A DNA stretch of 64,000 nt, taken from Trichoplax sp. H2 (taxonomy: Eukaryota). Where the stretch lies: the NCBI GenBank assembly GCA_003344405.1, contig NOWV01000001.1, positions 1,488,001 through 1,552,000 on the forward strand, given 5' to 3'. The notes under the pieces were generated by a model, which saw nothing but the letters and a program-made list of their open reading frames with translations, did no database searches and was not told where the DNA came from. Each line of letters begins with the position of its first letter. Position 1 is the stretch's first letter. A program made the position numbers and the translations under genes. Positions 1 to 24,200 of the stretch are shown here, one piece after another.

Positions 1-1963
1 GATAGTTGAGAATTGATGTGTTGATGATTGAAATTTTCTCGTGTTATGAATATTGATAATAAATTTTAACTATTTCTCTGTCAATATTGTGCTTAAAACA
101 GTCTAATTGATGAGTATTGTATTTGTCATTTATTAATAATGCTGCTTTGTTATTTTGGATTACTTTATACTTGAGAAGTGATGTTTAATTTAAAATACTT
201 TTCTATGGATAGTTTAACGTGAGTATGTGCATGTACAGTAATGAGTCTTAAATCAACAACTAGGCTACATGTTTGTTTTTGTAGCATTTTAGAACGAATG
301 CAAGAGAATCACGACTGTAAATGGCATCTGCTAATTTTCATGATACCATTCCCATCATTCATTTTTTTAGGAATGTATTAATCACCAGATAACCTTTGTA
401 CAATCTAAATTGGATGTAATGAATATAATTAGGCTATCGTAGGTATACTTAGAGTGGTAATTAATGGAAAGTCAGCTAAATAATAATGATTATTCAGGAT
501 TTCTGTAATTGCGATTAAGATACCATTTTAATATCCTTTAAGGTGACCTCAGTTGTTATAGTTTTCATAATCTAACCATTTAATTATACGCTAAATTGCT
601 TTAGCTTACTTTGATAATATTATCATCTTGACGTATATACAGTTGGATACCTTTATAAAATAGGATTCAGCATTTGCTTATTAAATTATTACTAGATATA
701 TTCTTTAAAATTTTCGAAGGCAGATTATAACCTAGAAATAAGCTGTTTTCAACTCAGTCAGTCATTCATCCTCAGAATATGTTAATGAGTATCGTATCAT
801 GTGAACTTGATTACTTTATGAAATGGGTTATATATGATTATTTAGATAATAATTGCGATAATAGGTTATGTGGAGCTACAAGATTTTAGTAGATATTTCT
901 GTTAAATTTAAATTATATCGTTCCACCTATACATTTCTAAATGGGGATCATTGATGCACAAGTATTACAGTAGTATACTACATATAAAGAGAAGGTATGA
1001 AGTTAAAATCGCACAGTAGCTGGATTTGAATAATCATTACTATCGATTATATCATCTAACCAAGCCTGCTACTACTGTAGCTTAAGCGCTACGGTAGGTT
1101 AGGCCGCTTGCCTATGGTAATTATGTACATAGAACTGGTCATCTAATGATTATTTATCGTTAAGTTTCCTTTATTTTCACATCTTCCTAACGCTGGACTA
1201 TAATACATTTCTGGAGATGGTATAAAACGAATATGTATATACTCATATATATATATAACTGATTGAATTAATATTTATGTTTATCAGTGAATAGCTTTTA
1301 CTATAACAATCTATTGCTCTATCTCAGTTGAGAGCTATACGAAAGCTTGGATTTGGTTTATACTTTAGTCTACTACTGTCTTGCTCGTATCCTTTAAAAA
1401 GATAAATCCGTTTAGTAGTTATGATGCATTAGCAAGATTTTGACTTTTTTTATAGAGTAGTCCCTGATATGATACAGGCGTATACAGTACAGTGTAAACA
1501 TATGCATAACACTACAGTACTAATTTCCTCGCAATTTTGCATATTTATTTTTATTTTATACCACTCTAACTTGATTTTCTCAAGTACTGTAGTGCATAAC
1601 TTATTACAATGTTGCTTCGCTGCTAATAAATACTGTAGTATTTATGAAATTTTACGAATAGTAGTGTGTCCTAATTTTAATTATAGCTGGATTTTTTTAG
1701 GATTCTAATTTTGTAATCAAAACCAAGCCATTATATGTAAATGCAAATCAAAAATTATAGGAAATTACTTTTTCAAGGTAACTTTATTTGCTATTCATTT
1801 TTAAAGATTAGGTTGAATTTACAACATGGTCGTGGTATGGCTAAAACATAACATAAATAGTTTAAGAACTTTATTGAATGTATTTTAATTATGATAACTA
1901 TCCGTAGTTGTATTTAATCATTAAACTACACACTGTACGCTAACATGATGAGATAGTCAGGTA

Positions 1964-2040
1964 TACACGATTACTAGACTATCCGTTACTACAATCCAAT
2001 CGAGTTTGATCTCGAGTTAATAACTTCATTATATCATGTA
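1964..2040 (-). promoter_or_regulatory. SECIS element of the decayed deiodinase pseudogene (GAGA apical variant)
   Basis: Minus strand reads TACATGAT-ATA-ATGAA-GTTATTAACTC-GAGA-TCAAACTCGATTGG-ATTGTAGTAAC-GGAT-AGTCTAGTA-ATCGTGTA. This gives an AUGA/GA core, helix II, an apical mini-stem and helix I. Homologous to the SECIS at 6271 and 12753; lies ~330 nt 3' of the pseudogene. Confidence 0.8.
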
Positions 2041-2372
2041 GAACTATCTACATCAGCAAATTCAGTCTACAAATTGATAATGACATTCCATTACGCAATT
2101 ATTATTATTCTACAATTAGATCGTCTAGTATAAAAAGATGGGTGCTATTTCCTGTATACAATATACTTGTAATGTAATCCTTTTTTTTTGGTTTGCCTTG
2201 CAGCAATTTGACAATCCTAGAATATTTTTAGATTAATCTCATTGATCAATTGAAATTAAAAGACAACGCTCGAAGCTTGCCTGTCTTTACCAGTATGATT
2301 GGAATCAATTTCGTTTTCACAGTATTAAGTGAAATGATCGATTTTGGCATGGCAGACAAGACGTTGCAATTT

Positions 2373-3170
2373 GGATGATTTTTGTCCTTGTGCGACTTGT
2401 TCATGAATCGTTTCCTGTCACCTGGACTGTGTAAGTCAATGGACCTGGATTACCAAAATAAAAGTTTCAATTCTATACTGTATATGTATCATTTCGGCAG
2501 TACAGCATCGACCAGTTGATGACGCCATTTGCACGCGAATGGGCAAACACCGTAATTAAAATTAGAAATAATGGATCAAAATTTTTTGGAGCCTATTTTT
2601 ATTCTAACATCTAATCTTTCGGACTGAAATAAAGAAGAGACTGAGATTAATTGCTAGCAGTGACCATTGATCATCTGTATATTAGCTTCGTTAATATAAA
2701 AAATATTTCATTGATGATGATAATTAAGTCGTGATGCAAGATCGACAAAGTGATTCAGTTTTCATGGCCATGGTGGTCAAGAGTACGATCCAAAGTTGAA
2801 GAAGTGAATCTTTTGTAATTCAAAGTTATCACCACGAAGCATAAATAATTATAAATTAATCAGTCGATGGAAGCTGCATTTTCTATATAATCATGTATGA
2901 TTGTAGGTTAATTAATTCATTAATTCATAAGACGTGGTTAAATTATTGAATAAGAAATCCCATTTACTATTACACTACATAGACGTGAACTATTCATGGA
3001 TGATTTGAAATTTTTGCTAGGAGTTGTCATTAGTTCCAATTGGAATTGTAATGGACTAGAGTTTATGCAATAGTATTGAATAACGATAGAAAGAGTTATA
3101 AATAATACTCAAATTGACACTAACAACGTTGACGATAATATCGCATTTCAACCAGTAGAATCATTTGGAG
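2373..3170 (-). pseudogene. Decayed iodothyronine deiodinase-like selenoprotein pseudogene
   Basis: Minus-strand translation KIHFFNFGSYS-U(TGA 2779-2777)-PPWP*KLNHFVDLASRLN...YINEAN, later QSERLDVRIKI, DAVLPK*YI, YFGNPGPLTY, QVAQGQKSS. Colinear with the intact paralogs but has premature stops and frameshifts. The 5' boundary is approximate (FYWLK resembles YGWFK). Confidence 0.85.
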
Positions 3171-3536
3171 CTCGCCCTGTGAGCAATCCAGCCCATCTTT
3201 TTCACCTCATCAGCTTGCAACCAGGTTTACAAAGATGGGTAGATGTGAAGCGAGTGACAAGAAATGGGTTAAAAGTAGGAAATTACAACGGCAATAAAAT
3301 AGACTATTCACACAAATAACTAATTTTGCTTTAGTTTACATATGGATTGAATTTGCATCATGATTATCAATTGCTTGTGAAGACGTCCGGTGCATATTGA
3401 AATGTCCACGACACCAGTTGGTCATACCGGTTGCACAGTAGAAGTGAGTACAATAGTATGCTATACCGTCGATGTACTGAACACGGGGGTAAGGGTTGAA
3501 AGCTTTTCACCGCCAGACGTTTCGCGTGACATTGTG

Positions 3537-3908
3537 TTACTTCTTATTGGCATTGGAATTGGCATTGGAATTTTTAATAAGTCGTCGCCTGATGGTGCTG
3601 GGATGTAAAGTTTTGCCTGTTTTATCCTTTAACATCGCTGCTAATTCCCCACTAGCTTTAAATGGTGACTCTTTCACCGCTTCCAGGATCAAATCGTCCT
3701 CCTCGGGGGTGGTTTTGCGTTTCCTACCCGTCTTGAATTTTTGAATTTTAAAGGAACGCTGGCCTTGAAAGCGTTTGACAATCCGTTGAATAGTGCGTTT
3801 ACTAACTTTCATTCGATTAGCGATCTTCTGTCGAGTCCAGCCAGCTTCATCAAATGCCATAATCTGTGCTCTATCACAGCATGTGAGTAGCTTATGTTTA
3901 GGAGCCAT
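3537..3908 (-). CDS. Tc1/mariner-transposase-derived DNA-binding protein (paired-like bipartite HTH only, no DDE domain)
   Basis: MAPKHKLL...DRAQIMAFDEAGWTRQKIANRMKVSKRTIQRIVKRF...TGRKRKTTPEEDDLILEAVKESPF.ASGEL...TLHPSTIRRRL matches the Tc1 PAI-GRPR-RED layout. The ORF stops right after RED. TATATAAA on the minus strand at 4027-4034. Confidence 0.75.
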   Translation of the reverse strand: MAPKHKLLTCCDRAQIMAFDEAGWTRQKIANRMKVSKRTIQRIVKRFQGQRSFKIQKFKTGRKRKTTPEEDDLILEAVKESPFKASGELAAMLKDKTGKTLHPSTIRRRLIKNSNANSNANKK

Positions 3909-4156
3909 CAAGTTTAAAGCGATTAGTAGCAATTGGACAAGGAAAGCAATGGCAGAAGGAAGAAACGCCGCTTGACCCAGTGCTAAGGAAGGACAAGATT
4001 TTGCGCACGACGGATCATTGCGGTGCTTTATATACCTTGCTATCCGTACAAGTGGACACGCTATGGTACACTCTGACAGCCAACTGTATAGTATTCTATG
4101 CTGACGTTGTCATGCCATGTGCTAAGCTTGGCACTGGATGGTATGGCCAATTGCAG

Positions 4157-4500
4157 AAATGATGTCACCTGGAGATCGGGTTATTGGCTAATTAGGGAAA
4201 ATGATGTCACTATGGCGTGCCGAGAGTACTGCCTTCAGCTGCAAGGGCGTTGTCACGGGTGACATCCTTTTTGGTGGATACGGCCCATACCGTACTACGT
4301 GTTGGCCCACCGTACTGTACTGTACTGTAGAGAGTCAGTACTAAAAGAAAGAACGATGAGACTGCGCACAGTACTCTGCTTGAACTTTACAGTACGGTAC
4401 TATACGGTGTAGCCTGTCCACTAAAAAGATGATGTCACCCGTGGCGGTTCACTGGTGAGCTGTGGGCACTACTTGAGGCATGGAATGGCGACATCATTTT
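4157..4500. repeat. Cluster of five AAATGATGTCAC-like motifs in both orientations
   Basis: Copies at 4157-4168, 4198-4210 and 4426-4438 (forward), and 4259-4270 and 4488-4500 (reverse), in a GC-elevated patch between the HTH ORF and the first deiodinase. Confidence 0.7.
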
Positions 4501-5126
4501 CAATAAATTCATCGCTCAGATTGACCTCATGAACAATATCATTGGTCACAGGACTAGTTATGGGCAACTCTAGTTTACAGTAATATTAAGGTTAAGCAAC
4601 AGTTAGCCTGGTTCAACTGAAGCCAATCAGGTCATCCGATTGCAACGCTCTGTAGCAGCTGATCTGGAGCCATATCTGACTGATTGCAAATGTTGCAGTT
4701 AAGTTGGATAACGACAACGATTGCGCAAGTGCACATACCAGTGGCAGGTATATAGTAACAGTACTGTACGTCATCATCAAAAATATTTCTGACTGTAAAG
4801 CGTAAACATCAACCCCAGAAATATCTTGGGCTATAGTCGACTTTGCATATAGCTAATAATTCCTAATAATTCTACGAATGATTAGCAATCGCAAGACCTA
4901 CAGTACATCGTAACAACAGTCTAGTAGACACTAAAAGCCGTCAAAAAGAAATGGAGAATTAACTACTTGTTGTTATACATCGATGTAGTATAGTATTTGC
5001 TCATCAAGCCTACTCCCGCTTACCACCAACATAACACTTGTGTACAGTACACGGTAGCACACCCAACTCTGCCCAAGCTCGCCTTCAATATTCAGAATAC
5101 TGTAGTTCTTAATCCATTGGGGGTAA

Positions 5127-5939
5127 ATGGCAATGCATCAGAAAAAGGAAACCAGCCTTAGCTGGTTCATGTCTGCATATCTCATGATGTATGGATTATT
5201 CAAACTTATCAAATACTTTTTAACATTAAGGTATTACTATCCTGCTTCTACAAGCCATCTTCAGAAACGGATGAGACCTATCGTGCGAAAAAACTTGCAA
5301 GATCAAAAAGTAACCTTATGGTCTTATTTAAGATCCAATTTTTTAAATAAGCAAAATCTTCTCTTTCTTGGAGAAAGGTTTAATTTTGCCTCAATAAACT
5401 TTCTTAAAGTTGGACAACAAGCTCCTAAAGGACGATTATTTACACTTGATCAGCAACAAACTGATTTACAAAACATTTTTAATCAAAGCGCCAAAAAAAT
5501 TCATGTCTTAAACTTCGGATCCTATTCTTGACCTCCATTTCGATATGAAATCGATCGCTTTATCGATCTCGCTGGTCGATTTAGTAATCGTGTTCAATTT
5601 AACACTATTTATATTAAGGAAGCTCATGCCGCCGATGAATGGGCACTACCAGTAACGAATGAAAATCTTGGCGTATGCTTTCTTCAGCCTAAGAAATTAG
5701 AAGCTAGAATAAACATAGCTAAACAATTTATTAATCGTTTCCAATTTCAATTACCATTTTTTATCGATTGTATTGAAAATGACACGATGAAAGCATACGA
5801 CGCTGTACCAGAACGATTATATGTAGTCGATGACGGAAAAATCGTTTATTCAGGCGGTCCAGGTCCATTTGCTTATAGCCTAGATGACATGGAACAATTT
5901 TTAGAGAAATACGTCGTAGAAGGACAGAAATCGTCGTAA
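5127..5939 (+). CDS. Iodothyronine deiodinase-like selenoprotein, copy A (intronless, 270 aa, Sec TGA at 5529-5531)
   Basis: Reading through the TGA gives NFGSYS-U-PPFRYEIDRF...IYIKEAHAADEW...FIDCIENDTMKAYDAVPERLYVVDDGKIVYSGGPGPFAY...GQKSS* (TAA 5937-5939). All deiodinase motifs present, hydrophobic N-terminal segment, downstream SECIS. Confidence 0.95.
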
Positions 5940-6270
5940 GATTCGGATAAACTATACGGATAATTTAAATATTTATATGTGTCATTCGAGTTACCACTAA
6001 TTGCAATAGATAGCATATACATTACAGGCTTGGTTGAATTGTCCTTTCAACTTCAGTAACTAAATAGTGATGGCCTTAAGAAATTCCAGGGTTGTCGTAC
6101 AATGTTGAGCTGTATGACGAAACAAGAAATTGTATTTAAAGCGTATTACGCACAGGAAAATAACTATTAATTATTATTATTTTAAAATTTATATCTTGTA
6201 ACGTACTAATGGATGTGCAATGCAATGCACATTATGCATTCGTGGCTTTGTTGGTGATTAGATAGCTTTT

Positions 6271-6346
6271 ACGTGATATAATGAAGTTATTTACTTAAAA
6301 CCAAACTGGACTTGGATTGTAATAACCGAAGATCAATTAATCATGT
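6271..6346 (+). promoter_or_regulatory. SECIS element (type II, canonical AAAA) of deiodinase copy A
   Basis: ACGTGAT-ATA-ATGAA-GTTATTTACTT-AAAA-CCAA(ACTGGAC)TTGG-ATTGTAATAAC-CGAA-GATCAATTA-ATCATGT. Confidence 0.88.
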
Positions 6347-6956
6347 ACATACGTATATATGTCTATCTTTACCCAACACGCTGGCTTACATTGCTTTTAG
6401 CGAGTTAAAATGCAATTACAGATATCTAATGATCTATTGAATGAAATTCTTTTCAGCTATTGACACGTATTGTATTTTTAGTTAGTCATAGCTTGTTATC
6501 AATGTCACCCTTGCAACGAGTGGTAATAAAGATACCAACAAAAATTCCTTCAGGCGAGTTATTATCTATTTGCATTACAATAATTTAATAAGCAATGAGA
6601 AAATATTGCTATCGACAGTCGATTTACATAAAGTGATTTCGTAAATATTGACAAGTTGCAATACTAAAAGTAACATAGCTAAGCTTGTAGTAAATTTGAT
6701 GTGATTACTCTAGATTCCGTATGACGGCAGAAATCTTGTGAACTACTCTTTTTCGTTAAAGTGAAAAGAAAATTCGACAGATCATGTTTAAAAATACAAC
6801 TACGTGTAAATTCAATTCATTGAAGTTAAAATACAACAAAATGTTACGACGATACCAATAAAATTATGTGTATATCCCAAATTGCAAAGCTGTACCATTT
6901 GAAATTTATTCAGTGCAATAGTAAGAGGAAGGGTGTATATTATAAGTTTCAGTGAA

Positions 6957-7010
6957 GGATTGTGGAATCGTGGACGCTCGCTTCCATGCGAGCGGGTTCG
7001 AATAGTGCTT
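6957..7010 (+). pseudogene. tRNA-like / SINE-head relic
   Basis: A-box-like TGGAATCGTGG (6963-6973), perfect 7-bp hairpin CGCTCGC-TTCCAT-GCGAGCG, B-box-like GGTTCGAAT (6995-7003). No acceptor stem or T-stem can be formed. Confidence 0.4.
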
Positions 7011-8235
7011 GTAAAATATCGATTTATTTAATTTTAAATATCTTTATTTATAGTACCGATGAAGAATAAGCAAACAGGGAAAACGTATTTTAGCTAACGC
7101 TTCATTTAAAGTAGTGTATGTTCCGAAAACATGGACGAATATACTTACATCGGTTATTTAAGATTTAGAATTAGGATAAAATAAATTTATAATTTTGAAC
7201 GACTTTTAGTCTAGGATAGACTATACTGTATTACATAAAGTTTATTAATCTTTATAATATAAATTAAATAAGATTAGAGTAGAGTAGATTATACAAATAG
7301 AGGTGCAAATACTTACTAGTAACTTAGTACTGTCTGTAGATTCGTGGCACTGTACATCTACCGCAAGTGAATTATAAGACGGACATAAACAATGGGAAAT
7401 CTAGTAATGCTTAAAGGAAAGACCTCAGGAATACAATGATATATTCCTAGTTTAGAAAGACTAGATAGCAGAAAAACTTAGTACAGTAATTACCATTTAT
7501 CATCTTTTTCAGTCCTAGTTCTGCAAGACTCTACATCTACAGTACGAATCTCTCCCAAGTCCCTTAATACTTCTCTTCAATATCTCCATGTTATGCACTA
7601 TACAGTATCTAAGCAACTAGAAAGTTCTAAATAGCTGAAAAGTCTTTATATGCTATTAAGATCAGGTAGTTACTAGACATGAAAATTAAAAAATATTGAT
7701 TACGTTATAGTGCATAAAGTCTTTCTGTAACTTAATTCTTCCTAATATAGTTGTATGCGTACATGGATACTCGCATACGCATATACAGTATATAACCACT
7801 ATGTAGTCAGTCATTAACCTTAACTACATTTTCTTACTGCTTTAATCAGTTCCTAAAATAGTTCATGCATCACTAGTTCTACGAGTAATTCTAAAATCGT
7901 TGGAATTGCGTGTGAAAATTTATCATATCAGTGTTAGTTTACTAGAACAGTTTTAGCATAAAACTTTAAAGTCGAAACCAGATTATTTGGCAAATACTCC
8001 AATGAACCAAACTCTTTTAAAGAGATTTCTCGACGATATCTTTATTTGTGGATTACTTTGAAAATTAGATTTACGATAGGATTATGATAAATAAAGGTAA
8101 TACAGTATACTCTATAAATATTTTGACATTTAATCAATTACAGTTTATCTATATCCTTACTTAGACAAGAGTAGTTATATTTAGTTCGCTAGATGGAGTA
8201 GTATACGTAGATTACTATGTTGAGATAGATAAATA

Positions 8236-8317
8236 TACAGGATTAAAATAATAGATCATCAGTTGTTACAATTCAATCAAACTTGGTCTCAAGTAAAAAC
8301 TTCATTTAAGTTCTGTA
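8236..8317 (-). promoter_or_regulatory. SECIS element of deiodinase copy B (GAGA apical variant)
   Basis: Minus strand TACAGAACTTAA-ATGAA-GTTTTTACTT-GAGA-CCAAGTTTGATTGA-ATTGTAACAAC-TGAT-GATCTATTATTTTAATCCTGTA. Confidence 0.82.
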
Positions 8318-8592
8318 AACGTATCTGTCATTAAGAAGTCTACGAATACTTCTCCATTCTGATACTACAAAATTTAAAGTAATTCCGTAATTACTGATAT
8401 AAATGCAATTTAGTTCTCATGTTAGCCTTGTAGCTCATGGCTATTAATTAATTTAAAAAAAGTAGAATAACATTGAAAGACTAATATCGAGCTAGGATTT
8501 TAAGTTTCTATCGAATTGCATTCCATAGTATTTAATCGTGTCTTAAATGACTCGTATAAGTATTTAAATTATCCGTAGAGTTTATCCGAATC

Positions 8593-9411
8593 TTACGACG
8601 ATTTCTGTCCTTCTACGACGTATTTCTCTAAAAATTGTTCCATGTCATCTAGGCTATAAGCAAATGGACCTGGACCGCCTGAATAAACGATTTTTCCGTC
8701 ATCGACTACATATAATCTTTCTGGTACAGCGTCGTATGCTTTCATCGTGTCATTTTCAATACAATCGACGAAAAACGGTAATTGAAATTGGAAACGATTA
8801 ATAAATTCTTTAGCTATGTTTATTCTAGCTTCTAATTTCTTAGGCTGAAGAAAGCATACGCCAAGATTTTCATTCATTAATGGCATTGCCCATTCATCGG
8901 CAGCATGGGCTTCCTTAACATAAATAGTGTTAAATTGAACACGATTACTAAATCGACCAGCCAGATCGATAAAGCGATCGATTCCATATCGAAATGGAGG
9001 TCAAGAATAGGATCCGAAGTTTAAGACATGAATTTTTTTGGCGCTTTGATTAAAAATGTTTTGTAAATCAGTTTGTTGTTGATCAAGCGTAAATAATCGT
9101 CCTTTAGGAGCTTGTTGTCCAACTTTAAGAAAGTTTACAGTAGCGAAAGGGAACTTCTCGCCAAGATGAACAAGAGATTGCTTATTAAAAAGATTGGATC
9201 TTAGAAAATGCCAAGTAGATATTTTTTGACCTTGCAGATTTTTCTCACATTCAGATTTCATCTTTTTCGGATTATGATAGGGATTATCGATAGTAGGGTA
9301 GTGGTACTTTATTGTTAAAATACATTTGAGTAATCTGAAAAATCCAATGATCATGAGATAGGTAGACTTGAACCAGCCATAGGAGGTTTCCTTTTTCTGT
9401 CCAGTCGCCAT
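8593..9411 (-). CDS. Iodothyronine deiodinase-like selenoprotein, copy B (intronless, 272 aa, Sec TGA at 9003-9001)
   Basis: ORFs 9001-9420 and 8593-8886 are one frame joined through the TGA: MATGQKKETSYGWFK...NFGSYS-U-PPFRYGIDRF...IYVKEAHAADEW...GPGPFAY...GQKSS*. ATG at 9411-9409. Confidence 0.95.
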
Positions 9412-11093
9412 TGGCTCCAATTATTAAATGATACCGTTATTGATTCACTGAATGAATATTAATAGTGTAGTATACTGTGTGTAAGCGTATACTGAAAGTA
9501 ACAGCTTTGATCAGTTCTATTAGTTTTGGATATGACTCTGACTTTACCTGCTAAACTAGTGCTTAGCCATTATAGTGTCGATTAGACGATTAGACGATGA
9601 CGAAATTTCTAGCCTATCATTATTACCGCTGTATTCGTAATTGCGTATCTATCTATCTATCTACTCATTCTACTGTACAGTACAGTACAGTACAGCAGCG
9701 ATTCGTAGAATGGAGGGGTTTACCTAGTGTTAGTACTGTATTGACACGACACACGAATGTAGCTTATAATATTAGACTAGTTTATTAAGAGAGAAGAACA
9801 GTCAAGAGTGACTTCTAGATGAAGACTTGTTAAGAGTACTCCAATATACCATAGAGATATTTACTTATCCTATTCCTAGGATACAGAAAACTAACTTTAA
9901 CTTATCTAGCTGTATAGGAATGCTATTGACTCAGCTGCTGCATGCTGTGCATGATAGCTGGTGGACGATAAACTATGTTCTACCACGACTAGAATACAGC
10001 ACATGAACACTAGTAGAACCCGCTGACGATATACTTCGCTTATTGTATACAGTCGGTGTGAGGGTACGTATACTTGAACTTGTTTACTTTACCTCATACA
10101 ATCGCTATAAAATAGCTGTAAAGTAAACTAATTGTTTAACAATTTATCTGTAAACTAGCTCTATTAACAGATAATTTACAGCTACTATATGATTGTTCAT
10201 GAAGTCAAACTACAATGTCTTTTTCTACTGTACGTAGATGTTACGATACGTAAGCTTGTTCTAATGAGGACCAGTTTTTAGTTAGTTAGTCGGTTAGTTA
10301 GTCAATTAGTTTGTCAATTGCTATTAAATTGTCAAGACTATAATCTTGATTGTCAAGATTTCTTCAGCAATAAATAGTAGTCAATCCCTGACTACCGCGT
10401 CTACACTATCAGTGAAGCTATAATTATACTATAGTATTCAGTCGTTGGAACTAAATTATTTGGTGATACAGCTAATCTCGCCTCTTAAAGTCAGTAAGAG
10501 GCGTTCTTCATAAGCATTGGCGTGTGTAGATTACTTTGTCTCTAGTGGTGTGTGACAGTAGAATATAGAATAAATAAATTTTATTTTATACAGTACTGTA
10601 CCAAAGCTGAATCTAATGGTGTGGATTAGTGTCGATGGCATAAGCAATAGGAGTAGTAAAGTGCAAAATAAGAATAGTAAAGTAAATGAAAATAAGATAA
10701 ATGAAAGCATGTATGGAATACAGTCGAAAGTATATCCGATAATTTTACAGCTACTAAAATATGATAATTTATCTGAATATTACATATATTTCATGAATAA
10801 CAGCTGAAATTTATATAGTGATGTCATAATTTGTCGTAAACTAATTTTGAAATTATCTGATGTTGTGTTTGGATAAATTATCATTTAGCGTAGTAGCTGT
10901 AGATAAATTGTCATAAAGGTGACAATTAATGATAATTTATTTCAACATTACATGTACAGTACTGTATTTAATGAGCAGTCGCTGAATATATATGGTGTTT
11001 GTCACAATTGTCATATCCTAGCCATAAAATTATCTTATTATTTATGCCAAGAATATCATATATCGTACTACTGTAGTATTGTAAGACATGAGC

Positions 11094-11900
11094 TGTGGTA
11101 TTAAACGGAAAAAGTTCCTAGACATATCATCTCTAATTCAGTAATATACTTGTTCAGTATTCGTAAATTACATCACATCCCGATGGTTAAGATAGGATAT
11201 TACCTCACTTTCTTATTTATACGAAGTGCTACACTTTTTAATTCTATTCTGCTTGTTTATAGTTACAATCTATGAACGACTAATGTTATAGGTTAGATAT
11301 TTCTCTATGAGTCGTTGAGGCTTTCGCTTTAGTCGATTAGATCTTTGTATAGAAATAGCAGTTTCAATAGCTGGTGCTTGAGATAACTCGGTGCCTTAGA
11401 AGTCTCTTGATTCTGTACAGTCGTGGGATGTACTCGTGTTTCGCGTTCATTATTTTCTGCCACAGGCATCTTATATATTCATTCGGAATTTGTTTTTGTT
11501 CGAAAAGTCTGCTCTCATGGCTTCAGATGGGTGAAGGAATCGACAGTTCTGTGAACGTACCTTACCACGATATATCTTACCAATAGGAGTTTGCATCATG
11601 TAAGATCGAGGTTCTGTTGTTTCCTTTAACACAATTCCAGGTGTCCATTGAAGGCTATGAGAGTCTTGCATTGCAACAGCTGTACCGGGTTTCAGAGTTG
11701 ATAGGTGTTTTCGTCCACGTTTATCATAGTAGTGTTTTTGTCTTTCCTGGCGTTGCTCTAAGATCTTCTTAGTTTGAGGATCTTTGAATTTGTAAAAATG
11801 AGGTAGTTGAGAACGTATTGATGCTCCAAACAAAAGTTCTGCCAGACTGGGCAAATTAGTATCAATCGGAGTCGATCTAAAATACAACACTGCACTTCTT
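11094..11900 (-). mobile_element. Gypsy-type (K02A2.6-like) LTR retrotransposon relic: integrase C-terminal region and possible short 3' LTR
   Basis: AVLYFRSTP...SLAELLFGASIRSQLP...QKHYYDKR...LKPG...WTPGIV...PRSYMM, then a typical pol end KRKPQRLIEK (~11335-11300). Possible LTR TGTGATGTA...TAATACCACA at 11177-11094 (weak). Confidence 0.75.
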
Positions 11901-11943
11901 TTATTGACTATTACACGCTTTAATACGTACACGCAGTTGAAAC

Positions 11944-12626
11944 TATTCTGAAATACTAGAGTTGCGTGTACTTCTTACTTTAGCATTACCGTACTATAGC
12001 AGAATTACTTTAGTATACTCTACAGCTATACAAAATCTTTTAAAAGCATCTTTATTTGCTGACTATATACTAGTACAGTTAGTTTGCTTTGCAACACGAT
12101 AGTAATAGTGCNNNNNNNNNNNNNNNNNNNNAAGGCATAACTCAGTCGTTTCAATTTCAAAGAAATCAATTAGGCCTACAATCTGGACCTGAAATGATGA
12201 CATCCCCCATCCTGCTGTCTTTCCGTTTAGTATGTTTTAACCATAGAGTATACAATATCGTGCAAAATGTCTGACTCCAATAAAATCAGGGTGGATGATT
12301 TAATGCGTGTATGCAGTATAATAATTAAAATCAGATAAAGTTATGTGCATCAGTACATATAATATGATCAGTCAGGGAAGTATATTACGCGAAGTATAAC
12401 CAGCTAGGGACATACTAATATAATATGATAGATAGGTCACTAGCTCTACAAACTACAGTATTCTGAAATACTAGAGTTGCGTCTACTTCTTACTTTAGCA
12501 TTACCGTACTATAGCAGAATTACTTTAGTATACTCTACAGCTATACAAAATCTTTTAAAAGCATCTTTATTTACTGACTATATACAAGTACGGTTAGTTT
12601 GCTTTGCAACATGATTGTAATAGTGC
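11944..12626 (+). repeat. 168-bp direct duplication (11944-12111 / 12459-12626) straddling an assembly gap
   Basis: Near-identical copies with a few substitutions; N-gap at 12112-12131. Confidence 0.9.
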
Positions 12627-12752
12627 TAACGAATAATCCAAAGAATTTTAAAATTTATCAATTATAGATCTTTATTAATTCGTTAATATAACTGGAATAA
12701 CTATTAATTTTGAATAAAGCAACATAAACTTGTATGCTGAGATAGATATCGT

Positions 12753-12830
12753 ATACATGACTAGTAGATTATCGGTTATTGCAATCCAATCGAAGTCGGT
12801 TTTAAGCAAATAACTTCATTATATCATATA
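12753..12830 (-). promoter_or_regulatory. SECIS element (canonical AAAA) of truncated deiodinase copy C
   Basis: Minus strand TATATGAT-ATA-ATGAA-GTTATTTGCTT-AAAA-CCGACTTCGATTGG-ATTGCAATAAC-CGAT-AATCTACTA-GTCATGTA. Confidence 0.88.
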
Positions 12831-13241
12831 AACGTAAATCTATCTATTTCATGAACACGTTTACGAGTGTACCTCGGTTTCAAATCTACCCCCAAAATAA
12901 AAACTATTATTGTATCCGGGGCTAAGAGGATAACAATTTAATCCTTACTTTAGTTGTACAATCGTGTCAAGCAATTATATCCGTTGTAAGATAGAAAGTG
13001 GGTCAAGGTCTCTTCAACCTGCTATAAACCGTAATTAGGGTTATTCTCAGTCAGTTAACGAGCTGATGTAGATTGCTTTCTTCTAATAATATTAAATACT
13101 GCAAGTTGAAAAAGATTAATACTGAACTACACGTTTAAGTTTCTATGTAATTCTATTTTACAGTATCTAGTTATTTCTTATAAATGACTTGTATAAACAT
13201 TTGAATTATCCGTATAGTTTATCCGAATCTTATAACAGTTT

Positions 13242-13760
13242 CTATTTTTCTACAACGTATTTCTCTAAAAATTGTTCCATGTCATCTACACTATAAGCAA
13301 ACGGACCTGGACCGCCTGAATAAACGATTTTTCCGTCATCGACTACATATAATCGTTCTGGTACAGCGTCGTATGCTTTCATCGTTTCATTTTCAATACA
13401 ATCGATAAAAAACGGTAATTGAAATTGGAAACGATTAATAAATTCTTTAGCTATGTTTATTCTAGCTTCTAATTTCTTAGGCTGAAGAAAGCATACGCCA
13501 AGATTTTCATTCATTAATGGCATTGCCCATTCATCGGCGGCATGAGCTTCCATAATATAGATAGTGTTAAATTGAACACGATTACTAAATCGACCAGCCA
13601 GATCGATAAAGCGATCGACTCCGTATCGAAATGGAGGTCAAGAATAGGATCCGAAGTTTAAGACATGAATTTTTTTGGCGCTTTGATTAAAAATGTTTTG
13701 TAAATCAGTTTGTTGCTGATCAAGTGTAAATAATCGTCCTTTAGGAGCTTGTTGTCCAAC
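13242..13760 (-). pseudogene. 5'-truncated deiodinase-like selenoprotein, copy C (Sec TGA at 13640-13638)
   Basis: Open frame VGQQAPKGRLF...NFGSYS-U-PPFRYGVDRF...IYIMEAHAADEW...YVVEK*. Identity to copies A/B stops abruptly at 13760, and there is no in-frame ATG upstream before a stop. Confidence 0.85.
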
Positions 13761-13761
13761 G

Positions 13762-13989
13762 GGAGCAAGGATACAAATTGCTAAAGAATTCGTTGATCGT
13801 TTCGATTACAAATTGCCATTTTTTGTCGATACTATGGAAGGTGATACCATGAAGGCCTATGGCGCTCAACCTGAAAGATTGTATGTGGTTAAAGATGGGA
13901 AAATTGCTTATGAAGGTGGACCAGGTCCATTCTGCTATAGTATAGACGATTTAGAACAATTTTTAGAGAAGTTGATCGCCAACAAGTAA
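13762..13989 (+). pseudogene. 3' fragment of a more divergent deiodinase-like gene, copy D
   Basis: GARIQIAKEFVDRFDYKLPFFVDTMEGDTMKAYGAQPERLYVVKDGKIAYEGGPGPFCYSIDDLEQFLEKLIANK*. Lacks the Sec region and is absent from the ORF track. Confidence 0.88.
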
Positions 13990-14620
13990 TTGCTATCTCG
14001 ACCGTTACATTTAACTTGGATCATATCATTTCTTCTCATTAGCTAGTCTGGAATTGAATCCACAGAAAATATGGCACAAAGTATAAGCCTTCGTCTTAGT
14101 ACACTTTGTAATGGTTATCTTGATTAAATTCCCTGTTTCAAACACACTCTGCATTGAATACCTGTTCTAACTACTTCTAATAAATTAATATTCATCGTGA
14201 CTGAAATTTAGACGGTTGCTAAAATGTATATCTGTTATAAAGGCCGTGAAATTTTTTATCGCAACACTTCGATACGATGCCCCTTTTTTGCCGACCTTAA
14301 GTTATCCCCCATTTCGATAAAGTCTAAATTCGTACGTTATAAATTTAAGAATGCGCTAGCTAATCTACTTTACTGTTTATCAGCTAGATATTGATAGCAA
14401 TAATAATATTTAAACTATTCTAGGCGGTTTACTTAACCATTGATGGTGCATTAACAGTTGCAATCGCGCAACAACGTTGTATTGCACTCTGTTTTTCTAC
14501 TATGAAAATTACTATTAGACGTATTTGTATTTATCTCTTATGATAAGTAATATATTAGTAGTAATGGAAATATGATCGATTCCTACAATGATAGTTAAGG
14601 CTTATTGTTGCTGTTTATAT

Positions 14621-14693
14621 AAGTAGAATTGCATGAAGTTATAGCTTGAGACCAATCTATTTGGATAGTAATAACTGAGGAAAAATTCTATTT
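14621..14693 (+). promoter_or_regulatory. SECIS element of copy D (GAGA apical variant)
   Basis: AAGTAGAATT-GC-ATGAA-GTTATAGCTT-GAGA-CCAA(TCTAT)TTGG-ATAGTAATAAC-TGAG-GAAA-AATTCTATTT. Confidence 0.85.
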
Positions 14694-15613
14694 GCTTATA
14701 AATTATGCAATGTAAGTGCTTTTCTGTGATGTATCAGGATAAAAGATATTAAAATAATAAAAGGCAAGAAACTAAATTTTTAATCCCTTAATCTTAAAAC
14801 TTATGGCTGGATAACCTAATAATCATTGTAGGTGCTGTTTAGAGATTAGCTGCGTCGTTCTACGTATTTTGCTATGGAATGGAAATCTTTCCTATTAGAT
14901 CGGAGTAACAAATTGACATTTGATGGGACACTGGTATGAATGTAGGCAATTTTTCAACATAACCCCTTATGTGTAAATTTTATACAGTGCAAAATAAATC
15001 CAAGAATCAAAATTTTTAACTTTATGCACATATACGAACATCTTTACGACCTAGATTACTAGATTCTACAAAATTATAACGTTCGTTCTGCAACGATGTA
15101 GTTAGAATTGCTCAGTTAAATTCTTTAGCAATTCGATTTTAACTCAAGAGTTAACCAATTCAAGATTTTTGCAAATTTAATCATAGATACGTATGAAGAA
15201 CGATAGAACTACATATTTGTTTAATACAGAGGAAAAGCTCGCGTAGCATGTTGAAGTATCGTATGATAACATTAGAGAATAAATAATAGCCTTGGAAAGC
15301 CAGAGATACAGGTGAGATTAAGCTGACTTCATAAATTATCTGAAAGGCTATTAGCTTAAATAACTTATACAACGAAGCTGATGTTAATGCGATAGCTGTA
15401 CTATTTTAGTTGTGTTGTTAAATATTTACCTTATCAAAGAATTACTGTTTATTTCAACAAAATTTTAAATTAAATTTGATTACCAGTAGAAAAAAGCTGT
15501 GCAAAGTCGTGTTCTCGTTAATAATCATACCCTGTTTATTATATAATTTTCAATGACATCCTAATATCAATAAACATCGCCTGTAATTATGAAAATATAG
15601 CTAATCCGCGTTA

Positions 15614-17652
15614 TTAGTCAGTTTTTTCTGCCTTCGAACTAGGGCTGAGACATTTTCGGCGTTGACGAAACATGTGACCGTATAATTGAGGAAAGACTAA
15701 AGGTACGTTTAAAGAGTATAAGCATTAGTATATTAAGCAATATACATGCGTATTGAAAAAGCACAGTTATTAGAAACTGAAAACCATACTCACTTGGAAT
15801 ATATAAAAGGGAAATGAAAATTAAAGCTGAGTAATAATCAAACGACATATTTAAGTCGTTAGGCATTTCGTAGGAATACAACTTTCGCTTTGCAACATAT
15901 GGTAGTGAGTAAATTATACAAAGTAGCTCGCCCTAAGAACCCAAAGAAATCAATTACGGTAGTTAAAAACTACAAGCATTTAATTAGACGTTGGTTGCTG
16001 TAAAGTACTTTAATCGAAACTCATTTTAGCATTGCTTGTATAGTGTATTTCGGAGCAGGTATGATATGTCCAACTTCACTTACCGAAACACCGCAAGGGT
16101 ATAAAACGATAAAGAGTGTATACCTGTAAAAACATGCAAGCATTATTATTGGATATCGTACTTGAAGGTAAACTTAATAGTTATAAATATGTGAATAATA
16201 GCAATCTTTCTAATACAGTAGCTGAGAATTGTAAGTAAAATACGAGCAATAAAAGCAAATTTGGAAAGTATCTTTACCTCAGCCATGATAGTATATATGG
16301 TGCGAAACCAATTATATTGGTAGTATAATACGAATAACGGATGATTTCAGTTATAGTCCATGCCATCACCGCTAACTCGACTGCTATGGTATCTTGAATC
16401 TATAGTCATAAACAAGTATTCATAATTGTGAATTATCTTTACAACCATGAACTCCTCCAAATATTTATTTTACAATTTCCATCAGATAGAGGTTAAGTCC
16501 GTTTCAATGTACTATAGTATATGTCATTACCACTTTAATACAATTTAAAGAATTGTTTCAATATTAAGATAACACGCATCGATAGGTTAACAACGTCTAA
16601 ATGATAGCCAATGACAGCGAATGTTATTGTCAGTATGCAAGTATCCATATAATACAGCATAGCACTTACTTCTTTGACGCTTAGAATAACTCCCCAGTAT
16701 ATGATTAGGCGAGAAGCAACTTGGAAAGCTGTCAAAACAACATTTGCCCGAACCAATCCTAAACAGTGATGAAATTAAAAATCACCGTATGGCTTTGGTG
16801 CCAAGTAATTGAAGAGGTGCTAGATATAATGCAGACTTTCTCGAGCTTAACAACATCAAGATTGCGAATTTGGTTTCTCTTTCTCTATGGTCAATCCTAC
16901 TTACCGATTGCACAATGGAATACCTAATAATGGAAAAGATAGAACTCGTTAGCATATTACCATGACGAAGAAAGCGTTGCTTGATTTGGGTCATGTGGAC
17001 CTTTGCACTGCCTTATAAAGACTGCAAACAGCAGATGTTTGAAACTAAGTTTAATTAATTCTAATTATTATTCCCTCACAGACAGTACTGTTGTCTATTT
17101 TCATGCAGTCGATCGCCAATAAATTATCGATGCAAGAGGTACAGACAGTAATACTTTCAAATTAGCTAACTTTACTGCCATCAACAACTAGAAAGTAGGA
17201 ATGAGAACTGAATTACGTCAATAAGAAATTCGTGTAGGCTATCCTAATCATGCTGTGACTAGCCTATGCAGCAGCGACTTGCAGGTCAATGGACCATGTC
17301 AACACTTTGCAAACTGACCTCTAAAATAGCAGCGCTTTGAAAGATCTTTAATATCTGATGAATTTCCTTATAAAAGCCATCCAAGCTACGATTTTGATGA
17401 TAATGCTGACAAGTTTTGACTAAAATTGCCGACCATCTACATAATGCATAGGAAACAATATTCAATGGTAAGAAAGGATCAATGTATCCAATCAACCTCT
17501 TTCTACTCGTGCTATGATTGACTTGGCAAGTAGAAATCCTGTTCATTTAAGCCTCAAATCGTTTACCCGATTGTCTGCAGGACATTGTAAAGCAATAAAT
17601 AAAAATTTCCAAGCATGCCTGGCCCTTTTCTTTTCGAAGCTTCTTCCGCCAT
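15614..17652 (-). CDS. HACD: Very-long-chain (3R)-3-hydroxyacyl-CoA dehydratase (HACD1/2, PTPLA family), 8 exons, 231 aa
   Basis: Exons 17652-17567, 17436-17319, 16923-16905 (19 nt), 16758-16670, 16399-16278, 16123-16084, 15932-15794, 15696-15614 join in frame. Motifs: YLLLYNVLQTIGW, FQSAAILE, FHCAIGLVR, QVASR, AWTITEIIRYSYY, WLRYTLFIVLYPCGVSGE, FPQLYGHMFRQRRK. Confidence 0.93.
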
Positions 17653-21285: not shown

Positions 21286-24200
21286 TTAATCATTCTTAAT
21301 GTGAATTTCAGAATATGATGCAAACAATAATACTAGTAACACTGAGGATAAAAGGCCAACCCAACCAAACATTGTTATACCGTAAATAGAAAATAAGTAC
21401 GAAGCAATTGGAGGACTAATAAGTCGAATTCCGAATTCAACAGTAGCTATCATGCCAATCATGGAACCACTATCACTTTCCGGAGCAAGACTTGTAAGGC
21501 AGCTACTTAAAATAACTTGAAATGTATCTGTTCCCACTGCAAGCAAGAACATGGCCAGGCAATACGGGATAAGGTTTGTTGTAAATGCCTTTCAGATAAA
21601 ATAAAACAAAAATAAATGAAGAGACACAACTATTGCAATAAATTCAATAGCATTAATTTATACATTTGAATTTAGATTAAAAGCTATTATGCATTGAAAT
21701 ATATTTATCAGAAATGGTTAGAAAGTTGGATCCGTACCATGATAATGTAGATAATAATCAATGACATTGAATCGTATTTCAAAACGGTGTATTGAGAATA
21801 TAGGTCTGTTATATAACCAACGAAAAATCCCTGTACAATCTATAAAACCGCAGTAAATACATTTCATTGAAACGATAGAAAGGCATAAATCAAACGTCCA
21901 ATAATTAAGCAGAAGTAACCTTACCGTTGTTAATACTCCAAGATAAGCTAGCATTAATCCATTTGCTTGAGCGCCCAAATGAAAGTGATCCATTAAGATT
22001 AAGCTTATCACTGATTGTATTAAACCGAGTGGAAGGAAACTAACTAGCTTTAATACCAATAGGAACAATACGTGAGGATACGCCAGTAATCGAAATGCAT
22101 CCGAAATACTTGTAGATGAGCTTTTTTTGCTTTTTTCTACGTACAATAGTTGTCAAAACAACCGTGATTGTGAAAAAAATTAATCATACAGTCTCTAATA
22201 TAGTCTTAAGGTGTTCTATAGTCTGAAATACGAAATGTTATGACGATAAGAATATTCACTGTCAAGACTTTTTCTTTAAATTAATATATCGGCTTAATTT
22301 ACTAACCTTTCTGTTCATCTTCAGAATTTCCCAAATACATCTTGGTATTCTTTGGAATAAACATCATAGTAATCATTACGTGTAGAACAGCCCCAAAAGC
22401 CGATATCATTGCGGTAGTTTGTTCTCCATAACTGGCTTGAATCCATCCACCTAGAACTGACCCGACCAACATACCAAAGCCGAAACACATTCCAACTTTA
22501 CCTAAAGCATCTGGACGCTCTATAAGTATATATATATATATACACATATAGGACTATTTTATTCAAAATTTTGCGAAATCGCTATTAAATATTACACTGT
22601 AATGTAAATATTAAGGTCAACATGGAAATAGTAATTTCAAGCAATTATTTGACAATTTTAAGCCCAATACTAATACCATTCACAGCATTTGCTAACCTTT
22701 TGGATCAGAAACATCGGATGCTATCATCTGGTGAGCTATATTCATTCAAATAGTTAAATGCAATCATTGATTGGTCGTTTTTGCTTAATTTTTTTCCGAA
22801 CTAGGGCATTTAAACTGACTTTAACTATTATATACGAGTGTATTAATCAAAAATTAAAGTACTGTAGTCAAAATGAATACAGTAACTCTATGTAAAATTA
22901 ACTACAATTCCACTATTTATAGCAGTATATGATCGATAAGCTTCAGATTATTTTCGGTAGTTTTACAGTAATGAGTAGTCCTCTAAAATTACATTTACGG
23001 TATAGCAAAATAATTATCAATTGAAGACACTGTTACGATATCTAAATTACGAGACACAAATATCTACTTATAAGACAGTGTAATATTGTATTCTAAGTTG
23101 ATGATATCTTTAGTAATGTCTACCGTAGTTATTGTGTTCAAGGTTTGATAGATATTCCGTTAGAGGCTTAAGTATTAAATATAGCTAGCTTAGCTGTATC
23201 CTTTTGAAAAGGAGTGCTCGCACTAGAGCTTCACAAGAAAGGTGTGAACTATCCTGTATTTGAGATGCTAATATTGAAGTGTGTAGTAAGTAAGGTGCTA
23301 AGATTGTTAACGTGAAAAAATATATAAGCGAGTAGTTTAATACAGTAAAATAGTTCTTTCTCGTTAGAGGTCCTCAACTGATCGATTACGTTGTATCTTT
23401 GTAAACGAGGTTTTGTTCAATAAATCTTAATTTTCTAAAGTGTTGAAGATGCTTGATCTATCAACCTCATAATACTCTATGTTGTGGAAATGCTGAGAGA
23501 TGCAATACATTGATATTCATTCCACCTAATACATAGTACTGTATATTATTAGTTAAAAAGCTAGTAACAAGGTTTTATGTTTAAAGCATCATCGTATTGT
23601 ACTGTAAGCACGTATTACGCGAAATTCGATTGTAGCTTTTGTACCTGGTAAGCCATGAGCTAAACATAACGCTATCTGTGATAGAAACAAGAGGTATTTG
23701 CTGCTTGCGAAAGCTACCATTAGGTAATAGCATAAACTCGATAAGTCAGCAATAATGACAGCATAACGTGCTCCATAATGATCAGCAATGCGTCCAAATA
23801 TAGGGGAGCCGGTAAACATAGCAGCTGCTCCAATAGTTTGCAAATATCCGAATTGTATTGCATCCATGCCAAGTTTCTTGGATAAAAACTAGAATACGCG
23901 CGATACATTCGTAAGTAAATATTTTAATAATGCTTATCAATAATGCAGTTGCAATTCTCGAAAGTACAGGTTTCTTACAGTCTTATCCATGCACAAATCT
24001 AGGCTCAGAATCTCTATCAAACAACTACTCTACGATCTGTAAGCTAACTGTACACCTTCTACTGATAGCAGTGTAGCCGATAATATAATTAAGAGCTAGT
24101 TACAGTATTAAGATTAAGCTATAGCCATGCCCGTTAAGGTAATTTTAAGTATCTCTATCAAACAACTACGCTACGATTTGTAAGCTAACTGTGCACTTTC

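Follow-up and report, generated by a model that had tools for sequence, protein, structure and literature searches.

A stretch of 64,000 nucleotides (nt) of Trichoplax sp. H2 DNA (assembly GCA_003344405.1, contig NOWV01000001.1, positions 1,488,001-1,552,000 of the forward strand; hereafter the window, whose own numbering is used for all positions) carries, within 13 kilobases (kb), five loci homologous to the iodothyronine deiodinases, which we call A to E. Judged by its protein matches, the window is placozoan, with Trichoplax sp. H2 as its nearest match; the database entry most similar to gene A is annotated 'Type I iodothyronine deiodinase [Trichoplax sp. H2]' (RDD47779.1). A tblastn search of all 64 kb with the protein of gene A gave exactly five matches. 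The loci are as follows (percentages are tblastn identities to the A query):

~2373-2848, minus strand: deiodinase pseudogene D; NFGSYS-TGA-PP kept, with its TGA at 2779-2777, otherwise decayed; match at 2815-2684, 50% over residues 123-166
5127-5939, plus strand: gene A; intact, 270 codons, single exon; candidate selenocysteine (Sec, U) TGA at 5529-5531; an open reading frame (ORF) with TGA read as U
8593-9411, minus strand: gene B; intact, 272 codons, single exon; candidate Sec TGA at 9003-9001; an ORF with TGA read as U; match of 80.5% over 272 residues
13242-13760, minus strand: gene C as assembled; residues 95 to the end; candidate Sec TGA at 13640-13638, stop TAG at 13244-13242; match at 13760-13248, 94% over residues 95-265
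13762-13989, plus strand: gene E as assembled; the last 75 codons and stop of a divergent paralogue, frame open; match at 13726-13980, 62% over residues 176-264

A deiodinase family with an in-frame UGA

The proteins of A and B, which are 80.5% identical, matched the Pfam family T4_deiodinase (PF00837) at 3.6e-37 (128.4 bits) and 1e-35 (123.6 bits), respectively, against a curated cut-off of 27 bits. Among proteins of known structure, A matched Dio2 (9h48) at 2.4e-22 and Dio3 (4tr3) at 5.6e-22, and its TGA aligns with the Sec position of both. The motifs YI-EAH--D-W and ERLY are conserved between the window deiodinases and Dio2/Dio3. A degenerate pattern for NFGSYS-TGA-PP matched the window four times, at 2772, 5511, 8996 and 13633; the chance expectation is 0.01, and four matches were reached in none of 100 shuffles. 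The motif is thus present in four of the five loci, and the assembled part of E stops short of it. C is 95% identical in nucleotides to A 5409-5986, with a frame that is open apart from the candidate Sec TGA; E is 62% identical to A in protein and 75% in nucleotides. Eight divergent deiodinase queries, searched by tblastn against the whole window, matched the same loci significantly, except that D was found by five of the eight, only at E-values of 0.2-2.9. Neither A nor these eight relatives revealed a sixth deiodinase locus by tblastn, all other matches being at chance level (E 0.3-4.5). We conclude that A, B, C, E and D very probably form a tandem, mixed-orientation family of selenoprotein genes of the iodothyronine-deiodinase type (PF00837).

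The window genes share with vertebrate Dio1-3 (PF00837; Dio3 4TR3/4TR4, Dio2 9H48) the thioredoxin-fold domain, the Sec position in FGS-x-S/T-U-PPF, EAH--D-W, ERLY, a moderately hydrophobic N-terminal segment, and a UGA combined with an element of the selenocysteine insertion sequence (SECIS) type in the 3′ untranslated region (UTR). They differ in being only ~35-40% identical to the vertebrate proteins (by eye from alignments), in lacking introns, in carrying GGPGP, and in lying in a multi-copy tandem array in a host without a thyroid.

Past the UGA the frames stay open for ~135 codons in A, B and C and for 75 in E. The ratio of nonsynonymous to synonymous divergence (dN/dS) past the candidate Sec codon was 0.29 for A-B, 0.38 for A-C and 0.21 for B-C; for E against A, B and C it was 0.12-0.15, at a synonymous divergence (dS) of 1.6-1.9. 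Each gene would consist of a single exon encoding a moderately hydrophobic N-terminal segment, a putative membrane anchor, and a thioredoxin-fold catalytic domain. The UGA in FGSYS-U-PPF would specify selenocysteine, decoded with the help of the gene's own kink-turn (ATGA...GA) hairpin, 290-650 nt into the 3′ UTR. We consider it highly likely that the live genes are each translated in this way into a Sec enzyme with the deiodinase fold. The position of the UGA, the family membership, the homologous 3′ elements, the cover by contigs and the constraint downstream are observations on the DNA and on public contigs; from them we infer Sec insertion itself.

Homologous SECIS-like hairpins downstream of all five loci

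A blastn search with the hairpin region downstream of A found four homologues, each lying 3′ of a deiodinase locus and on the strand of that locus:

1964-2059, minus strand: SECIS-like element of D; ATGA at 2029-2026; apical motif GAGA; helix II present, helix I duplex strong
6268-6363, plus strand: SECIS-like element of A; ATGA at 6281-6284; AAAA; CCAA/UUGG mini-stem, type II shape; canonical fold
8249-8306, minus strand: SECIS-like element of B; ATGA at 8305-8302; GAGA; U.C mismatch in helix II; helix I displaced outward
12739-12832, minus strand: SECIS-like element of C; ATGA at 12819-12816; AAAA; G-C compensatory pair in helix II
14633-14687, plus strand: SECIS-like element of E; ATGA at 14633-14636; GAGA; 10-bp helix I of unrelated sequence; canonical fold

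Identity to the A element was 80% over 97 nt for C (E-value 5e-18), 80% over 98 nt for D (6e-17), 80% over 60 nt for B (3e-8) and 76% over 58 nt for the element of gene E (2e-4). All five elements have the ATGA and all five the 3′ GA; the core, a helix II of 8-9 pairs and the mini-stem are likewise present in each. The ATGA lies 342, 288, 423 and 644 nt past the stop codon in A, B, C and E, respectively; in D it lies 748 nt past the TGA, compared with 752 nt in A. An unpaired purine run follows 12 nt past the ATGA, with the mini-stem above it.

Helix II contains a pair that is changed on both sides: where A, B and D have A-U, C has G-C and E has G.U. Wobble changes occur at two positions of this helix; D shows a change from U-A to U.G. 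Helix I is supported in four of the five elements, the helix I of C coming from hand pairing only. The helix I duplex has an energy of -12.2 kcal/mol in E (reached by 3 of 300 shuffles), -10.3 in B (1 of 300) and -15.3 in D (1 of 300), and that of A is unremarkable (51 of 300); in E and B the helix is maintained with unrelated sequence. In their ATGA/GA kink-turn core, helix II, purine run, mini-stem and place in the 3′ UTR, the elements resemble type II SECIS (Rfam RF00031), from which they differ in scoring below the Rfam gathering score of 35 and, in three of five, in carrying GAGA rather than the AAR motif. AAR is present in A and C, as AAAA; GAGA stands at that place in B, D and E.

A preliminary description of this DNA had reported five deiodinase-homologous loci in mixed orientation within 13 kb, four of them with NFGSYS-TGA-PP, intact and intronless A and B, and a SECIS behind every locus. 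The tblastn and pattern searches recovered the loci and the motifs in these numbers, and A and B are single-exon ORFs once TGA is read as U. The SECIS claim holds in the form of mutually homologous SECIS-like hairpins, 288-644 nt past the stops of A, B, C and E. The assignment of the loci to Sec-type deiodinase genes with 3′ elements of their own is supported by the T4_deiodinase match, by the UGA at the Dio2/Dio3 Sec position and by the homology among the hairpins.

Public gene models omit the selenocysteine region

The H2 model RDD47779.1 equals gene A at all 232 of its 232 modelled residues and lacks 38 residues around the candidate Sec, which a false intron takes out. The Sec region is also missing from three consecutively numbered T. 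adhaerens H1 models on one 5.9-Mb scaffold (TRIADDRAFT_58192, 58193 and 58194). Two models, RDD35782 and RDD35783, lie on a 2129-bp H2 contig; one stops at NFGSYS, and the other starts past the Sec region. Altogether, seven of seven Trichoplax H1/H2 models of the family that we examined skip the Sec, stop before it or start after it. N-terminal fragments from more distant sources (49-66% identical) behave alike: four of four (P0005, P0006, P0007, P0011) end exactly at NFGSYS. The claim that annotation hides these genes is therefore correct, since public models skip or split the Sec region.

Contigs of public runs over the array

We compared contigs of four public runs (X1, X4, X6 and X8) with positions 1500-15500. 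Of these, X8 is registered as RNA-Seq, X4 and X6 were guessed to be RNA, and X1 covers all 30 bins and is DNA-like. The contigs cover the array as follows:

1794-3976: D locus, colinear in three runs
4722-5424 (X4), 4779-5424 (X8), 4833-5424 (X6): 5′ UTR and start of A
5395-5914 (X8): coding sequence of A including the TGA
5942-6738 (X4), 5955-6544 (X6): 3′ UTR of A with its SECIS-like element
8618-8874 and 9281-9957 (X4), 8169-8590 (X8, including the SECIS-like element): B
12651-13067 (X4), 12918-13284 (X6): 3′ UTR of C with its SECIS-like element
13758-14842 (X4), 13758-14711 (X8): E with its SECIS-like element

Cover is absent over 7104-8037 in X4, X6 and X8 and over much of 9906-12240 in X4; these uncovered stretches fit RNA libraries and carry no weight as evidence. 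The D locus, its SECIS relic and part of a neighbouring transposase remnant lie on contigs of ~2 kb in X4 and X6 and on three near-abutting contigs in X8. It is possible that pseudogene D is transcribed.

The junction between C and E

C and E both lose their 5′ parts at a single junction:

13758-13760: head-to-head breakpoint of C and E; 3-nt overlap AAC, no N, no AG acceptor
11944-12626: assembly gap; 20 N at 12112-12131 between 168-nt direct duplicates

Contigs of X4, X6 and X8, which come from three studies under two organism labels, carry E, and their match to the window starts at 13758. Upstream of this point they carry 614, 614 and 733 further 5′ nt (X4, X6 and X8, respectively) that occur nowhere in 1500-15500. 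The loose end displayed for the E contigs is identical in X4 and X8, and its 30 nt have no match in the window at up to 3 mismatches. Read by hand in the frame of E, it gives ...CLLQPKK ahead of the first residues of E, compared with CFLQPKK in A. Because the loose end continues the deiodinase frame, we conclude that it is coding sequence rather than intron or UTR. About 570 nt would complete the frame of E, which is compatible with the extra length of the contigs. We considered an intron at 13758 and ruled it out: the preceding bases are CC, not AG, and the loose end keeps the reading frame unbroken.

No longer protein containing the E fragment was present among 24 candidates. An exhaustive representative search for the missing 5′ half of E (1108 matches at E up to 0.001, one at up to 1e-30) yielded P0012 alone, and this model is itself derived from the junction as assembled. 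An apparent extension of the C frame past 13760, from BLAST with P0006/P0007, was rejected as chance matches in the antisense of E.

For C, the H1 model TRIADDRAFT_58194 combines an N-terminus identical to window B at 59 of 60 residues with a C-terminus identical to window C at 101 of 103. Likewise, on the 2129-bp H2 contig a C-type C-terminus (101/103) accompanies an N-terminal model that is B-like (132/136) and ends at NFGSYS. N- and C-halves of B/C type are combined differently in the H1 models, in window B and on the 2129-bp contig (P0005, P0009, P0010); such mosaics would fit either gene conversion or swaps made in assembly over the ~560-bp shared tract.

The assembly is irregular nearby. 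The flanks of the N run, 11944-12111 and 12459-12626 (repeat family D3), are 96% identical, and a contig of X6 joins 11943 to 12459, skipping 515 nt. The gap with its duplicated flanks, 1.1 kb from the junction, looks like a gap-closure duplication in the assembly.

We reasoned that one segment missing between two divergent genes would explain both truncations. C and E would then most likely be whole genes whose 5′ halves, together with a common divergent promoter region, are missing from the assembly or from the haplotype. We conclude that the truncation of C and E is probably a feature of the assembly or of one haplotype only.

The strongest alternative is that birth-and-death is to be taken literally, a real deletion having removed the 5′ parts of C and E and the promoter region to leave two live and three dead genes. 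The junction is continuous, with 3-nt microhomology and no N run, as would be compatible with end-joining, and the H2 model P0012 was built across it. The breakpoint in C corresponds to A 5409, no more than 15 nt from where the tract shared by A and B starts (5395), as would be predicted if a truncated C limited conversion, but an assembler error also gives a breakpoint at a repeat boundary. Of the rows listed for X1, none has a loose end at 13758, a silence that is no evidence since it holds only among those rows. Against such a deletion stand the contigs with E and upstream coding sequence from three studies and two organism labels, the fully open remaining frames of C and E (C being 95% identical to A), the full-length C-type gene modelled in H1 and another on the unplaced 2129-bp H2 contig, and the proven gap artefact nearby. 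We therefore regard a real deletion as unlikely, though far from negligible.

Gene conversion among A, B and C, and decay of D

The paralogues A, B and C share a tract of unusually high identity:

5395-5953 in A (plus strand), ~8579-9137 in B, 13183-13760 in C: gene-conversion tract; catalytic domain and first bases of the 3′ UTR

Differences between A and B are dense up to 5394, and 16 differences occur over 5395-5953. The dS between A and B is 0.62 in codons 1-94 (dN/dS 0.55), compared with 0.08 afterwards. C carries the same tract at 95% identity. These patterns point to concerted evolution of A, B and C, in which gene conversion acts on the catalytic domain and the N-terminal segment diverges freely. 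Because E and D are far more divergent, conversion is layered on old duplications, and birth-and-death applies to D only.

Judged by its reading frame, D is the only demonstrably decayed copy, and it still carries a relic of the SECIS-like element. It aligned with A by BLASTP in one stretch only (24 of 48 identities, E 3e-13). Two additional TGAs interrupt the frame within these 48 alignable residues, and a hard stop comes after them. The GGPGP region is still present, at 2432-2467, but in a different frame, and three runs carry 1+2+1-nt deletions at 2629-2634. Between D and A lies a transposon relic with helix-turn-helix (HTH) domains and without a catalytic domain:

3540-4109, minus strand: N-terminal remnant of a Tc1/mariner-type transposase; HTH_32 (5e-12), HTH_Tnp_Tc3_2 (1.7e-7), HTH_23 (2e-7)

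A pseudogene (D) and recent duplicates (A, B and C) thus coexist, as in a birth-and-death array, yet A, B and C are homogenised over 5395-5953. The rapid turnover proposed in the preliminary description is not borne out: A, B and C have been homogenised (dS 0.08 compared with 0.62), and D alone has demonstrably decayed. Of its truncated copies and pseudogene, the pseudogene stands, whereas C and E are probably whole elsewhere, as indicated by the contigs, by TRIADDRAFT_58194 and by the 2129-bp contig. The H2 assembly at ~11.9-13.8 kb is unreliable, and counts of 'truncated' paralogues there are no evidence of turnover.

Other features of the window

Microsatellites of (GTACT)n type lie at 4312-4334 and 9671-9694, in opposite orientation, upstream of A and of B, and many X1 contigs end or jump there, with varied inserted letters. 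Joints in X1 from 4329-4334 to 9670-9676 would imply a deletion of A and B; we rejected this, as the sides are only 20-22 nt long and lie at (GTACT)n, and we read the joints as repeat artefacts. The depth of X1 is 640-1420 over 9439-10839, and this rise beside B suggests a high-copy repeat.

Neighbouring exons at 15642-15932, 21289-23888 and 29610-29882 matched PTPLA (1.7e-8), MFS_1 (1e-7, 9.5e-6) and V-ATPase subunit H (4.8e-13), an ordinary animal gene context without further selenoprotein signal. At 59673-63362 (plus strand) lies an open frame of 1229 codons that has no Pfam match and in which S, K, T, A, N and P are abundant. The frame after it, at 63092-64000, contains a C2 domain (1.3e-18), and the 1229-codon frame probably represents one large, disordered exon in the gene of a C2-domain protein.

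Discussion

Clusters of Sec-deiodinase genes have been known since 2012 from a sister strain of this Trichoplax. Jiang et al. 2012 (BMC Genomics 13:446, PMC3473315) list 11 deiodinase (DI) selenoprotein genes for T. adhaerens in the accessible text, together with selenoproteins and selenophosphate synthetase (Sps). They describe the DI genes as clustered, the largest cluster having six genes on mixed strands; SECIS coverage was incomplete, and incomplete SECIS-less copies were taken as pseudogene remnants. Clustered DI duplications are reported there for amphioxus and Lottia too. The window agrees with those clusters in genus, family, Sec TGA and tandem arrangement on both strands, and also in that a SECIS was found for only some copies, that incomplete copies were read as pseudogenes and that annotation pipelines went wrong. 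It differs from the six-gene cluster in having five loci, in the order D(-) A(+) B(-) C(-) E(+). A literature search on placozoan deiodinases returned, on such a cluster, nothing beyond Jiang 2012, whose supplement was outside the search. The 'hidden' cluster of the preliminary description is thus no discovery, given the clusters reported in PMC3473315, although the description was right that the host is an early-branching animal without a thyroid. What the present analysis adds is the GAGA SECIS-like elements, in copies that a standard search would class as lacking a SECIS, the conversion tract and the evidence that the truncation of C and E is not general; the supplement of PMC3473315 may already show the elements.

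What the enzymes do is less secure than what they are. Solely because of their membership of the deiodinase family, we think it somewhat better than an even chance that they would reductively dehalogenate iodinated phenolic compounds. The proposal in the preliminary description of a system for dietary or environmental iodo-/bromo-aromatics, or for iodinated signals, is speculative, with family membership as the one finding that bears on it. The arginine of GGRGP in Dio3 helps to hold iodothyronine, as a substrate clamp. A, B, C and E, like the invertebrate-like relatives seen, have GGPGP at this place, compared with GGKGP in Dio2 and GGRGP in Dio3. Given this proline, the natural substrate may differ from that of Dio3, which we offer as a lead and not as a result.

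A second alternative keeps the Sec enzymes and the fold, and makes them peroxiredoxin-like thiol/selenol oxidoreductases that act on another substrate and do not dehalogenate. Weaker Pfam matches to AhpC-TSA (1.3e-5) and Redoxin, the proline aligned with the arginine of Dio3 GGRGP and the lysine of Dio2 GGKGP, and the lack of a thyroid in placozoans would all fit this. However, T4_deiodinase is the best family match by far (128 bits compared with 26), and the motifs NFGS-x-S/T-U-PPF and EAH--D-W are retained. Ascidians and molluscs have deiodinases with measured activity; like the amphioxus enzyme, these belong to the same family in animals without the vertebrate thyroid axis. The deiodinase of amphioxus, a non-vertebrate chordate, is reported to deiodinate triiodothyroacetic acid (TRIAC; Klootwijk 2011, as cited in PMC8222990). 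A literature search found no assayed placozoan deiodinase. On balance we hold the oxidoreductase alternative to be distinctly improbable.

Several observations weigh against the proposed model of these genes, with an N-terminal anchor and a UGA decoded through the gene's own 3′ hairpin. The gathering score of 35 of the Rfam model SECIS_1 (RF00031) was reached by none of the five elements (A scored 22.5 bits and C 19.2), and those of B, D and E had no SECIS_1 match at E up to 10. Minimum free energies beat those of shuffled sequences for E only (z-scores: A -0.5, B +0.1, C -1.05, D -0.24, E -2.64), although whole-element z-scores of this kind are uninformative in AU-rich RNA here. The element of B has a U.C mismatch in helix II, and those of B, D and E are without the AAR motif, which PMC2919729, in the text available, calls 'essential for Sec incorporation', with the CCC of SelO as a known exception. 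The N-terminal hydrophobic segment is moderate only, the best 19-residue Kyte-Doolittle window scoring 1.19 at residues 10-32 of A and 1.63 at residues 16-34 of B. Constraint in the catalytic domains of B and C could come from conversion by A rather than from translation of their own. Transcript ends cannot be read from contigs, the RNA origin of X4 and X6 is a guess, and the contigs of A break within the conversion tract (5424 to 5942). Because this stretch is shared by paralogues, no one contig joins a Sec codon to its SECIS-like element.

The third alternative, that the UGAs are ordinary stops in pseudogenes or in genes for ~134-residue N-terminal fragments, with hairpins conserved from recent duplication only, could draw on the low SECIS_1 scores, the unremarkable folding energies and the indirect nature of the translation evidence here, but is very hard to sustain against a UGA that coincides exactly with the Sec of Dio2 and Dio3, ~135 open codons past it in A, B and C and 75 in E, downstream dN/dS of 0.12-0.38 even at saturated dS for E, the extra stops and frameshift that mark true decay in D, distant placozoan-like fragments that retain NFGSYS and then a stop call, compensatory changes in the SECIS stems, and the selenoproteins, DI among them, reported for T. 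adhaerens in the available text of PMC3473315.

The main value of this analysis is corrective, for gene models and for the assembly: comparative work on the origins of deiodinases or of thyroid signalling that uses Trichoplax models starts from broken sequences. That thyroid-less animals keep several expressed, constrained Sec-deiodinase genes is a functional question raised as early as 2012. For specialists in Sec decoding, the one feature that may be of interest is the GAGA-type elements. GAGA is common to the most divergent copies (E and D) and B, and AAAA occurs only in the closely related A and C. It is conceivable, at somewhat less than an even chance, that the GAGA hairpins of B and E, with a relic at D, are working SECIS and represent the older state in the family. 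If so, this would explain why the 2012 survey had 'strong' SECIS for only some of the clustered DI genes, and it would mean that Sec insertion in placozoans tolerates the loss of AAR, a motif regarded as essential in vertebrate work.

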